A stretch of DNA of 63,936 nt, the filler included, from an uncultured Methanosarcinales archaeon (GTDB taxonomy: Archaea; Nanobdellota; Nanobdellia; Woesearchaeales; CAYXTQ01): the NCBI GenBank assembly GCA_964608065.1. It is 3 parts of 3 records of this genome, joined end to end, with 100 filler letters (N's around TTAATTAATTAA, not from the genome) between each part and the next. Parts side by side here need not be neighbours in the genome. Positions count along the whole stretch, not along the records: positions 1 to 28,631 come from CAZSMA010000006.1; 2 more parts are not named here. One strand, given 5' to 3'. The translations under genes were made by a program, and so were the position numbers. Each line of letters opens with the position of its first letter. Positions within the stretch are counted from its first letter, which is position 1. The notes beneath the pieces are model-generated. The model made no database searches. It saw nothing but the letters and a program-made list of their open reading frames with translations, and had not been told where the DNA came from. Positions 220-56,471 of the stretch are shown here, in pieces.

Positions 220-514
220 GGGAAGACACATCAGAGGATGGATATAAGCAATAACTATTAGTTGACCTTGAACTTTCCTTAACTCCGCTACCCTAAGAGC
301 ACCAATATCAAAGTTTAAGGCTGCTTAATGTGGGTTTTAGCCCATTTCATTCCTGATCTGACCTATTTCACAAAGCTATCAGTCCCAAAGGACAGAGTCT
401 CATTGTCCAGCCCAAGACTAATTGTTAAAGCAAATACCTCTCTTCCGACTTCAGCTCTGTCTAAAGCGTGTTTACAGTGACAGGAGAGCGCTAACCTCCC
501 AGCCTAGTCTTCCC
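220..514 (-). ncRNA. ffs: Archaeal SRP (7S) RNA, interrupted by a 21-nt intron-like insertion (325-345)
   Basis: Minus strand: terminal helix GGGAAGAC/GUCUUCCC; Alu domain CUAGGCUGGGAGGUUAGCGCUCUCCUGUCACUGU with loop-loop AGCG/CGCU; helix 6 GGACA/UGUCC; helix 8 AGGU-CAGA-UCA-GGAA-UGA-[insert]-AGCA-GCCU; TATA (TTTAAAAA) at 536-543 on minus. Confidence 0.9.
325..345 (-). other. Putative BHB/BHL-type intron in SRP RNA helix 8
   Basis: AAUG-AA^A-UGGG-CUAAAA-CCCA-CAUU-AA^G: 4-bp central helix AAUG/CAUU with two 3-nt bulges; cutting after the 2nd nt of each bulge restores canonical helix 8. Confidence 0.75.
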
Positions 515-3736: not shown

Positions 3737-4831
3737 ATGATTATGACAAAAACAATAGATCCATATGGAAGTGAATTAATAGAGGATTATACCAAAATAA
3801 TCAAGGATTTTGGTTTAGATAGTTTTGACCCTAAGATTTATCCAAAGCCTAATAGGATTATGAGAAGAGAGGTAGTTTTTGCTGGAAGGGATTTGAATAT
3901 TATTGCAAAGTGTATAAAAGAGAAAAAACCATATTATGTGCTTTCAGGAATAATGCCATCTAGTGAAAAGATTCATTTTGGAACAAAGATGGTTGTAGAG
4001 AATATTTCATATTTTCAAAAGCATGGAGCTCATACTTATATTTTAATTGCAGATTTAGAATCAGCTGCTGCTCGTGGAGTTTCAATAGAAGAAGGCAAGA
4101 AAAGAGCTTTAAACTTCCATATTCCAGCTTATATTGCTTTAGGATTAGACCCTAAGAAAACAACTTTCTATTTTCAATCAGAGAATAAAGATGTAGTGCA
4201 TATGGCTTATGAGTTTTCAAAGAAAATAACATTGAATGAGTTCAGAGCTGTGTATGGAAATGCAGATCCTGGAAGGATTATGAGTGCAGTAACACAAGTT
4301 GCAGATATATTATATCCACAGCTGAAAGAAAGAATGCCTGGGATAATTCCAGTTGGTGTTGACCAAGACCCCCATATACGATTGACAAGAGATGTTGTCA
4401 AAAGAGTTAAAGATAAGAAATTCTTTTTGCCAAGTTCAATCTATCATAAATATACCCCTAGTTTAGATGGAAGTGTTAAAATGTCAAAGTCTAAGCCAGA
4501 AAGCTGTATTGAATTGCCTGAAGATCCTGATATAGTATGCAAAAAATTGAAAAGAGCTTTAACTGGTGGAAGGGATACTGTTGATGAACAGAAAAAATTA
4601 GGTGGACAGCCAGAGAAATGCATGATTTTTGAACTTTACAAACAACATTTAGTTGAAGATGACAAAGAGTTAGAGAAAATTTATAATGACTGCAAAGCTG
4701 GAAAATTACTTTGCGGAGAAGATAAACTGATAGTATGCGATAAAATGAAGAAGTTTATGAATGATTTTAAGAAGAAACTAGATAAAGCAAAGAAACAAGT
4801 AAGTAAGTTAAATTTCGTTAGATTTAAATAA
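3737..4831 (+). CDS. trpS: Tryptophan--tRNA ligase (archaeal type)
   Basis: SGIMPS..IHFG (HIGH-like), PVGVDQDPH, KMSKS, ALTGGR, CGEDK. Confidence 0.95.
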   Translation: MIMTKTIDPYGSELIEDYTKIIKDFGLDSFDPKIYPKPNRIMRREVVFAGRDLNIIAKCIKEKKPYYVLSGIMPSSEKIHFGTKMVVENISYFQKHGAHTYILIADLESAAARGVSIEEGKKRALNFHIPAYIALGLDPKKTTFYFQSENKDVVHMAYEFSKKITLNEFRAVYGNADPGRIMSAVTQVADILYPQLKERMPGIIPVGVDQDPHIRLTRDVVKRVKDKKFFLPSSIYHKYTPSLDGSVKMSKSKPESCIELPEDPDIVCKKLKRALTGGRDTVDEQKKLGGQPEKCMIFELYKQHLVEDDKELEKIYNDCKAGKLLCGEDKLIVCDKMKKFMNDFKKKLDKAKKQVSKLNFVRFK

Positions 4832-4868
4832 GTTAAAGATATATTTATTACAAAAAGAGGTGGTTATT

Positions 4869-5093
4869 ATGAAATTTGAATTTGCTCCATTAAAAGGAAG
4901 TTTTATGATTATTAGCATTATTGGCTTTGTTATTTCTGCTATATGGATTTATAGAGCAAGTCCATCATTAGGGTTTTCTTTTGCATTAATTTTTGTGCTG
5001 ATGTTCATAGCATCACTTATATCAATGACATATGGTCCTGTAAGTGATAAAGATTTACATGTTGATGAAAGGGTTAAGAGAAAAAGAAAATAA
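4869..5093 (+). CDS. Small two-TM membrane protein
   Basis: Two hydrophobic segments; GAGGTGG SD. Confidence 0.7.
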   Translation: MKFEFAPLKGSFMIISIIGFVISAIWIYRASPSLGFSFALIFVLMFIASLISMTYGPVSDKDLHVDERVKRKRK

Positions 5094-5096
5094 AAA

Positions 5097-5396
5097 TTAT
5101 TTATCCAACCTGTCAAACTTTTCTTTGCACTTGCTTTCTTTCCAATAGACAACATGAGAGCTTTTTTTCTCAAAAAGAGCAACAGACATTCTTACTAAAT
5201 CTGTCTGGAAATCTTTCATTTTTTTTTCCTGTATAATTTTTTTTGCATCTTCAAGGCACTCTTTCATTAACTTCAAGTTTTCTTCATGTGCTTTTTGCTC
5301 TATTTGTTTTTCTTCATCTTCTGTTAGAAATACTTCTTCCCATTGAGGATATGTAGAGCCTTTTACTGTTTTTGGAAAAGACTTAGAAAAGGTCAT
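5097..5396 (-). CDS. Conserved hypothetical protein
   Basis: 99-aa ORF translationally coupled to upstream prs. Confidence 0.7.
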   Translation of the reverse strand: MTFSKSFPKTVKGSTYPQWEEVFLTEDEEKQIEQKAHEENLKLMKECLEDAKKIIQEKKMKDFQTDLVRMSVALFEKKSSHVVYWKESKCKEKFDRLDK

Positions 5397-6436
5397 AATT
5401 TAACTACCTCGTATAAATCAGCAGGATTGATGTCTTCCAACATCTCAGTTATAGTATAACCGTGCCTGTCTCTTCTGATAGCTTCTGCCATATAGGGTGC
5501 TATGTTTAAGATAGTAGTTTTTTTTCTTAATTTAGGGCTGTTCTTGACTTTTTCTGTAATAAATGGTCTTGTGTTTGTGATTATCAGTTCATCTACTTCA
5601 GATTTGTCAAGAGCATCTTCAAATTTATTTCCTGATTTATCACTTAAGTAAGCATGAGTCAAACAAGCACATACTTTTTTTGCTCCACTTTTTTTTGCTA
5701 ATTCTGCAGCAGCCATTAATGTGCCTCCAGTATCTATCATGTCATCAACTATTATTACATCTTTTCCTTCAACATCTCCAATGATTTTTCCAGTTTTTGT
5801 TACATTGACTCCTACTCTTTCTTTTTGGACAAAGCCAATCTCTATCTCTTTACCATCTTCTTTACTTATTTCTCTTGCTAACATAGAAGCTAAACGTAAA
5901 CTTCCAGCATCTGGAGATATTATTGCTATTTTTTTCCAGAATTCTTTTTCATCTTTGTATCTTTCTTTGATTAAATGTCCAAATACAGGGAACATCCTTA
6001 AGTGGTCTAATGATTTATGGAAACCTTCTATTTGAGGGCTATGCAGTTCTAGAGTAATTGTATGATCTGCTCCAGCAGAGTTGAATAAAAGTCCAAGTAA
6101 CCTGGCAGTATTAGGTTCACGTTGTCCATGCCTTTTATCCTGTCTTGAGTAAGGTAAATCTGGACATACAATAGTCAGGTTAGTGCAATAACTGATCTTC
6201 ATATTGTTGATAACCTGCAATGCGTTGAATATTTCTCCATCTACATTATCTTTGAAAGTCAGAACAAAGTAAACATCAAGTTTTCTAAGATTTGTATGGA
6301 TGGTTTGCTTGTTTTCTCCATTAGCGAATGTTACAAAATCGACTTTTCCAAGATCATTTCCAAGTTTTTTGCAGACATCTGAAGCAAATTCATCATTTTG
6401 TCTACAGCCTAATACAACATAATCTTCTTTTTTCAT
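5393..6436 (-). CDS. prs: Ribose-phosphate pyrophosphokinase (long, class I-like)
   Basis: FANGE, PYSRQDK, ELHSPQIEGF, SPDAG, VDDMIDTGGTL. Confidence 0.9.
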   Translation of the reverse strand: MKKEDYVVLGCRQNDEFASDVCKKLGNDLGKVDFVTFANGENKQTIHTNLRKLDVYFVLTFKDNVDGEIFNALQVINNMKISYCTNLTIVCPDLPYSRQDKRHGQREPNTARLLGLLFNSAGADHTITLELHSPQIEGFHKSLDHLRMFPVFGHLIKERYKDEKEFWKKIAIISPDAGSLRLASMLAREISKEDGKEIEIGFVQKERVGVNVTKTGKIIGDVEGKDVIIVDDMIDTGGTLMAAAELAKKSGAKKVCACLTHAYLSDKSGNKFEDALDKSEVDELIITNTRPFITEKVKNSPKLRKKTTILNIAPYMAEAIRRDRHGYTITEMLEDINPADLYEVVKL

Positions 6437-27518: not shown

Positions 27519-28463
27519 CTACTTTTTTTTGTCTAGCTTTTTCTTTAATTCTTTATATTCTTTCATATACAGATTGATAGTTGGCTTTAAATCACGATAT
27601 TTTTCATATGCCTGCAGCGCATCATAGTATTCAACCCTGTTCTTGAAATCAATATTCACAGGAGGCAATTTGTGTTTGATAAGGATATTATTTTGAAGTA
27701 TCCTGCCTACTCTGCCGTTTCCGTCAGCAAATGGATGAATATTTTCGAATTGATTGTGAACCACTGCTGCTAAAACAAGTCCAGGGTATTTTATCTTATT
27801 CTTTTCATACCATTCTACTAATCGCCTAAGCAAATGGGCAATTCTTGCTTGTGGAGCTCCTTCATGGACAATGTTCCCTCTGCTATCCAGGACTACAACA
27901 TCCTCTTTCTTTTTTCTTAATTTTCCTGCAAACGTTTTTGAATTTTTAAAGACAATCTTGTGTATATTCTTTATTAGTCCTACTGATACGTGCTCTTTTG
28001 TTTTTCTGATAAAGGATATTGCTTCGTCAACTCCAAAAGCTTCAGCTATATCTTCTTTTGATCTATTAGGCCATTTATCTTTTTCTAATAAGTATTTTAC
28101 CTCAACCTGGTTAAGTTTGCTTCCTTCAATGGCATTTGTGTTATAGGTGAATATTTTTGAGAATTCCTTCCATTCTCTTTCTGAAAGGTGGGCTATCTTA
28201 ATCGGTATTTTTGCCTCTATATCCCTTATCCTTTTTATCTCTTCTTTTGAAAGTTCAAAATGCAACGGGTCTGAGATTATATTGTATTTATGGATTTCTT
28301 CTAATATAAGCTTTTCAGCGATGGCCTTTCTTTCTTCAAGGATTTTATTATTTATATCCTGGCCTAAGTATTTCCTGAACTTATGGACTTTTAAGCCTTC
28401 CCTGTATGAATGAGCAAGAAAATACTTAATTCTTTCTCCGACTTTCCTTTTTTCTATGTGCAT
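27519..28463 (-). CDS. Fic-family AMPylase with N-terminal inhibitory motif
   Basis: HPFADGNGRVGR active motif; TNAIEG (S/T)xxxE(G/N) motif. Confidence 0.92.
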   Translation of the reverse strand: MHIEKRKVGERIKYFLAHSYREGLKVHKFRKYLGQDINNKILEERKAIAEKLILEEIHKYNIISDPLHFELSKEEIKRIRDIEAKIPIKIAHLSEREWKEFSKIFTYNTNAIEGSKLNQVEVKYLLEKDKWPNRSKEDIAEAFGVDEAISFIRKTKEHVSVGLIKNIHKIVFKNSKTFAGKLRKKKEDVVVLDSRGNIVHEGAPQARIAHLLRRLVEWYEKNKIKYPGLVLAAVVHNQFENIHPFADGNGRVGRILQNNILIKHKLPPVNIDFKNRVEYYDALQAYEKYRDLKPTINLYMKEYKELKKKLDKKK

Positions 28464-28631: not shown

Positions 28632-28731
28632 NNNNNNNNNNNNNNNNNNNNNNNNNNNNNNNNNNNNNNNNNNNNTTAATTAATTAANNNNNNNNNNNNN
28701 NNNNNNNNNNNNNNNNNNNNNNNNNNNNNNN
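28632..28731. other. Artificial contig linker (N44-TTAATTAATTAA-N44)
   Basis: All-frame stop linker flanked by Ns; identical to 56372-56471. Confidence 0.95.
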
Positions 28732-56371: not shown

Positions 56372-56471
56372 NNNNNNNNNNNNNNNNNNNNNNNNNNNNN
56401 NNNNNNNNNNNNNNNTTAATTAATTAANNNNNNNNNNNNNNNNNNNNNNNNNNNNNNNNNNNNNNNNNNNN
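56372..56471. other. Artificial contig linker
   Basis: N44-TTAATTAATTAA-N44. Confidence 0.95.

Follow-up and report, generated by a model that had tools for sequence, protein, structure and literature searches.

A probable BHB-type mini-intron in helix 8 of an archaeal SRP RNA gene, and related inserts at two sites in relatives

Plagens et al. (2015, PMC4731332) describe a permuted, circular SRP RNA in Thermoproteus, whose ends EndA and RtcB join within helix 8b, and suggest an ancestor gene with simple BHB introns. BHB introns are also reported from other hosts that are not tRNAs, namely rRNA, one mRNA and the 5′ UTR of HVO_1309 in H. volcanii (PMC7714728); the accessible text of that survey makes no mention of SRP or 7S RNA. 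An internal SRP RNA intron is likewise not mentioned in the accessible text of PMC7758197, PMC6391926 and 10.64898/2026.05.13.725050, and the literature searched (without subscription papers and bioRxiv supplements) yielded no published case of an SRP RNA gene with an internal intron. In the archaeal SRP RNA gene described here, a 21-nt insert in helix 8 is a real feature and very probably a spliced BHB intron, its cleavage and ligation being extrapolated from known archaeal splicing chemistry.

The window (the whole stretch of DNA analysed, 63,936 nucleotides with filler) joins contigs C6, C7 and C74 of a genome labelled G000, an assembly of 131 contigs, with N spacers at 28632–28731 and 56372–56471. 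Its SRP RNA gene lies at 514–220 on the minus strand and matches RF01857 (Archaea_SRP) with 101.1 bits, against a gathering score of 96.5. The match is colinear over model positions 1–317, with helix 1 intact and paired and the gene ends not permuted, and no closing BHB around those ends was seen when the sequence was inspected by eye. The model leaves 26 positions at the tip of helix 8 unaligned. The gene is 295 nt long including the insert and 274 nt long once it is removed, compared with 264–278 nt in the other rows of the alignment. Helix 6, the SRP19 site, is missing (in the region 366–375, 6 nt stand in place of 40 model positions), an absence common to all aligned relatives, whose SRP RNAs are about 273 nt long; a search of 61 sampled genomes of the phylum for SRP19 (PF01922) found it in none. 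The 1.4-Mb genome (96.8% completeness) gave a single RF01857 match and no second SRP RNA gene, and it contains an SRP54 gene.

Two flanking elements were read from the sequence: a TATA-like TTTAAAAA at 536–543 on the minus strand, 22 nt upstream of the SRP gene, is its likely promoter, and a T-rich tail at 190–219 on the same strand, 3′ of the gene, is its likely terminator. The neighbouring genes encode a metallo-beta-lactamase-fold hydrolase (649–1500), which often adjoins SRP genes in relatives, a presenilin/SPP-family protease (1569–2471) and a class I Trp/Tyr tRNA synthetase (3737–4831).

The preliminary description had read the minus strand from 364 to 318 as a BHB interrupting helix 8, and the sequence agrees with each part of that reading. 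Exon 1 (346–514, minus strand) comprises the Alu domain, helix 5 and the 5′ strand and GGAA loop of helix 8, and ends at the first A of the AGCA strand; exon 2 (220–324, minus strand) contains the rest of the AGCA strand, the 3′ strand of helix 8a and the 3′ half of helices 5 and 1. Between them, at site 1, lies the 21-nt BHB-type intron (325–345, minus strand), a block insert relative to 49 uninterrupted relatives. In the central helix, the exon strand AAUG (348–351), made of two tetraloop bases and two of helix 8b, forms 4 of 4 Watson–Crick pairs with the intron strand CAUU (327–330). The bulges on either side are AAA (5′, 345–347; predicted cut 346/345) and AAG (3′, 324–326; predicted cut 325/324), and the hairpin h′ within the intron (331–344) pairs UGGG (344–341) with CCCA (334–331) around a 6-nt loop.

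By the established rule, EndA cleaves each 3-nt bulge after its second base; applied here, this removes 345–325 (21 nt), as had been claimed. The 26-nt helix 8 that results is the canonical one that had been foreseen and agrees letter for letter with the uninterrupted helix 8 of the relatives L003 (in G039) and L046 (in G032); only after this removal does helix 8 show the symmetric loop that binds SRP54 and a tetraloop of GNRA type. The insert interrupts the AGCA strand, whose four bases are all invariant in 56 of 56 intron-less genes. The central BHB helix and helix 8b are mutually exclusive, both using the exon strand 351–348. The outer helix, already described as weak, is a single, energetically unfavourable pair (G352–C323), and the motif is the relaxed HBh′ form, that is, the strict hBHBh′ form without its exon-side outer helix. 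An equally good motif (a 4-bp central helix and a stem of 4 bp or more, with every equivalent register allowed) arose in 1 of 200,000 shuffles of the insert, and in 0 of 200,000 when only Watson–Crick pairs were counted.

After each trial deletion, the gene was scored with a profile HMM built from 56 intron-less genes, which is blind to structure and is not the Rfam covariance model. Removal of 345–325, a comparison that the preliminary description had proposed with Infernal scores, raises the score of the window from 204.2 to 219.3 bits, the highest value among 4,080 deletions. The BHB register reaches the top score in 10 of 10 genes (4,080–5,508 deletions each) and, in a narrower scan, in 7 of 7 further genes (1,241 deletions each, with lengths within 8 of the excess); one gene, L128, was omitted because of a large internal deletion. 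This register is the sole best in L051, L076, L084 and L129 and is tied with one or two equivalent registers elsewhere. The window taken alone allows three equivalent registers, because AA flanks the insert on both sides; the AG 3′ bulge found in relatives fixes the insert at the BHB register. All 17 scanned inserts have two exact 3-nt bulges and an outer helix of one pair (17/17 for both), and the central helix is fully paired (4 of 4) in 16 of the 17, with 3 of 4 pairs in L130 (G382). The intron-side helix h′ has 4 bp in the window and 3–11 bp in the relatives, and its compensatory changes speak for a BHB intron.

On sequence comparison, the insert is best explained as a member of a family of helix-8 mini-introns in the SRP RNA genes of Woesearchaeota-type (Nanobdellota, DPANN) archaea. 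Helix 8 is uninterrupted in 49 of the 51 aligned genes (the window and 50 of the 54 matches in relatives). In a sample of the order, in which 142 of 151 genomes had an SRP match, five genes measured 295–323 nt and the others at most 278 nt (coordinates read by eye); each of the five over-long genes has one block insert in helix 8. The inserts occur at two sites. Site 1, that of the window, is occupied in 10 genes including the window, with inserts of 21–39 nt: a pattern without a fixed central helix recovered the window and genes in G071, G304, G472, G305, G076 and G382, and a pattern requiring the central helix was the only source of L071, L076 and L084. Site 2 lies opposite, in the 5′ strand of the symmetric loop, and is occupied in 8 genes, with inserts of 30–50 nt, from 8 genomes of the order (G042, G135, G124, G360, G427, G530, G449 and G315; loci L031, L052, L053, L134, L136, L141, L142 and L143), or in 7 without the unpublished genome G315 (L141). 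These are counts of genes found rather than a census, and amount to 17 interrupted SRP genes beside the window (9 + 8). A survey of DPANN SRP genes for variable inserts at this site had been proposed; the relatives do have such inserts, and these keep the BHB.

The loose site-1 pattern matched 133 of 401 genomes, mostly by chance, and 7 SRP-like rows were picked by eye among the matches listed. The pattern requiring the central helix gave 27 matches; 16 are labelled bacterial, and of the 11 taken to Rfam 6 are SRP genes; L090, from Bathyarchaeia, was rejected by Rfam as an SRP gene. The site-2 pattern left the central-helix pairs free, and 4 of its 11 matches were not inserts (G367, G344 and G008 are uninterrupted and the G372 match is not SRP). 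It was the source of the site-2 genes in G360, G427, G530, G449 and G315, those in G042, G135 and G124 having come from the aligned and over-long genes. A 310-nt second SRP copy in G207 was rejected as an interrupted gene, being a full gene with helix 6. No further insert appeared in the class sample (SRP match in 109 of 151 genomes), and family-level searches gave nothing more, family f1 containing only G000 and G001 and f71 only G071. The inserts lower Rfam scores (101 bits in the window versus 129 for an 84% identical intron-less gene, with G042 below the cut-off), and some SRP RNAs that seem to be ‘missing’ from DPANN genomes may therefore be interrupted ones; no SRP RNA was found in five of six no-match genomes re-searched at E ≤ 1 (all but G058).

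Two of the site-1 loci have unusual settings. L076 has an intron, lacks helix 6 and lies on a contig labelled Methanosarcinales; the gene clusters with those of Woesearchaeota type, and the contig is possibly mis-binned. L128 (G076:C50) has the site-1 intron but is about 100 nt short in the part linking the Alu domain to helix 8, which suggests either an assembly collapse or a pseudogene.

The same insert could be a retained expansion hairpin, never removed, that forms a three-way junction between helix 8b and the symmetric loop. One of the registers available in the window would keep the AGCA strand intact, and the calculated fold of such a side hairpin is nearly as stable as the BHB (−6.4 versus −6.8 kcal/mol). 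The pattern of substitution at site 1 is compatible with any conserved hairpin: in 7 genes, 84 of 84 cells are paired and 2 of the 4 intron-stem pairs have changed on both sides, and the central helix never varies and therefore offers no covariation. However, in L051, L076, L084 and L129, which have the AG 3′ bulge, looping out the side hairpin would replace by G the A that is invariant in 56 of 56 intron-less genes, and the two exact 3-nt bulges of all 17 scanned inserts would be left unexplained. So would the exon–intron covariation at site 2, where, in 6 genes (without G124 and G315), 47 of 48 cells are paired and 3 of the 4 central-helix pairs have changed on both sides. These pairs connect the insert to an exon strand whose partner in mature helix 8a is a different one, a connection for which a retained hairpin would have no need. 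The genes compared are related to one another, and shuffle counts are therefore not probabilities in this comparison. We consider a retained hairpin very improbable.

Folding predictions are the weakest point for the window's own copy of the intron. RNAfold gives its central helix a pair probability of about 0.09 in the whole precursor and 0.04 in the local stretch. Across whole precursors of nine other genes the values range from 0.07 to 0.98, with 0.75–0.98 in L081 (G304), L084, L088 (G472) and L053 and 0.07–0.47 in the others.

The genome encodes one EndA, a single alpha-type subunit of 188 aa that aligns to the EndA of M. jannaschii without the L1 or L3 insertions of the crenarchaeal and N. 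equitans enzymes; no second EndA subunit was found in G000. The RtcB gene is an open 485-aa frame with a match span equal to those of G001 and G027. The RtcB match of another genome, G305, is split in two pieces within a 982-aa open frame (L152/L154, G305:C7:535893-538694), which suggests an intein. Efficient cleavage of relaxed motifs has been tied to the L1 and L3 loops of EndA, and a loop-less enzyme removes such motifs slowly (according to the accessible text of PMC5829648). The combination of a one-pair outer helix with a loop-less EndA therefore counts against easy cutting, and the lack of broad-specificity loops would also suit a hairpin that stays in place. One variant of the intron explanation, whose probability overlaps with it, takes these points together with the weak predicted BHB population in the window: the intron would be a true BHB intron that is cut inefficiently, spliced and unspliced SRP RNA would coexist, and the rate of splicing would limit or tune SRP levels. 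We regard this variant as unlikely though by no means negligible, and it has to be set against essential tRNAs of the same cell whose introns are without an outer helix and which the same enzyme must mature.

The preliminary description had pointed to non-canonical tRNA introns in this genome, and two were confirmed. The tRNA-Gln(CUG) gene (G000:C23:16444-16536) has a 20-nt D-loop intron that is absent from the tRNA-Gln(UUG) paralogue, a tRNA-Gly gene (G000:C2, about 27788–27945) has an 82-nt D-loop intron, and neither intron has an outer helix. Only these two cases, both rechecked, were used, automatic reconstruction being unreliable at most loci. If these tRNAs are made, EndA must therefore handle such motifs. 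A default run of ARAGORN recovered only 18 tRNA genes in G000, so more tRNA genes are probably interrupted. No second copy of the SRP insert was found in G000 at up to 4 mismatches, and no donor in a tRNA.

We also examined assembled RNA libraries. In run X1, recorded as a seawater metatranscriptome, a 249-nt contig aligns with 232–500 apart from 7 differences and, at 325, one gap of 21 nt. It is 97% identical to the SRP gene of G000, compared with 85% for the best of the compared genomes, and lacks exactly 325–345. The preliminary description had suggested a search of metatranscriptome reads for the splice junction; the contig is in line with splicing, but it is an assembled sequence and may come from an intron-less relative, because an intron-less SRP gene 84% identical to the window exists in DNA (L067). 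Runs X2–X4 gave only more distant SRP pieces. No contig spanning the insert was found in X1–X4 (four of ten runs), which weighs a little, as contigs show presence only, against both a retained hairpin and inefficient cutting.

The introns are patchily distributed. Each of three genera, g1 (G000/G001), g72 (G304/G072) and g101 (G382/G101), comprises a species that has the site-1 intron and another that does not, G072 and G101 being called intron-less by match length only, and the same 22-nt intron occurs in G071, G076 and G305, which are spread over two families. On a tree of 74 exon-only rows, 4 changes are needed per intron family, a value as low as that in 44 and 45 of 500 shuffles, with bootstrap support unsettled. 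We infer repeated gain, loss or transfer, and the exon tree fits gain, loss and gene replacement alike. The SRP exons of the window are 85% identical to those of G305 (L129), from another family, and 69% identical to those of its congener G001 (L011); the neighbouring metallo-hydrolase gene shows synteny and 85% identity in G001, and 53% identity in G305. The SRP gene may have been replaced in one of the two congeners.

This divergence from the congener, 69% in the SRP gene against 85% in the neighbouring protein, would also suit a pseudogene or an assembly artefact, with the functional SRP RNA gene elsewhere in a genome that is split into 131 contigs; the 100-nt internal deletion in L128 points the same way. 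Yet a genome that is 96.8% complete has yielded a single SRP match, its exons are conserved and sit on a short branch (0.071), and homologous inserts recur in 9 independent assemblies, all of which makes a defective or artefactual gene scarcely credible.

If the insert is spliced as a BHB intron, the CAUU of the intron would pair with the AAUG of the exon in the primary transcript, opening helix 8b and the GGAA loop. EndA would then cut after the second base of both 3-nt bulges, and RtcB would ligate the exons, with release of the 21-nt intron. The ligated RNA would fold into an ordinary helix 8, and its symmetric loop would bind SRP54. Since this is the sole SRP RNA gene found, assembly of the SRP would need the tRNA splicing machinery; we infer that SRP RNA would be inactive before splicing and that protein targeting relies on this step.

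Taken jointly, the observations lead us to lean, with somewhat more belief than doubt, towards a wider reading in which mobile BHB mini-introns repeatedly target helix 8 of SRP RNA in DPANN archaea. Two unrelated families would occupy opposite strands of the loop that binds SRP54, would occur here and there in families and genera that include intron-less sister species, and may spread with or between SRP genes. Such genes would represent, in living organisms, the intermediate that was predicted for the permuted gene of Thermoproteus; membrane-protein targeting would be tied to tRNA splicing in cells without helix 6 and SRP19, and a loop-less alpha-type EndA would cut relaxed motifs outside tRNA. 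With the probable introns described here, SRP RNA, which is universal and essential, joins the short list of hosts of internal EndA-type introns, with 18 natural examples and exon–intron covariation. The system also offers a direct test of EndA specificity, in which an enzyme of one subunit and without the loops meets a relaxed motif in an RNA other than tRNA.

Compared with known systems, the mechanism is one already described, and the host RNA and the two-site intron family appear undescribed in the literature searched. The insert resembles the non-canonical archaeal tRNA introns (PMC5829648) in its 4-bp exon–intron helix, two 3-nt bulges, identical cut, short hairpin and weak outer helix; unlike them, it resides in an SRP RNA, in a genome whose EndA is without the L1 and L3 loops. 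With the BHB introns of rRNA, mRNA and HVO_1309 (PMC7714728) it shares the status of an EndA substrate outside tRNA. Thermococcus barophilus also has an end-joined SRP RNA, but there, in the accessible text, the junctions are those of circularisation and not of an internal intron (bioRxiv 10.64898/2026.03.23.713588). In T. tenax and T. uzoniensis the SRP gene is permuted, a BHB joins leader and trailer, and the mature circle is without helix 1 (PMC4731332). By contrast, the SRP gene described here runs colinear with the model, retains an intact helix 1 and has its BHB around an internal intron; interrupted genes of this kind supply the precursor form of the permuted SRP RNA that was proposed by Plagens et al. 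(PMC4731332).
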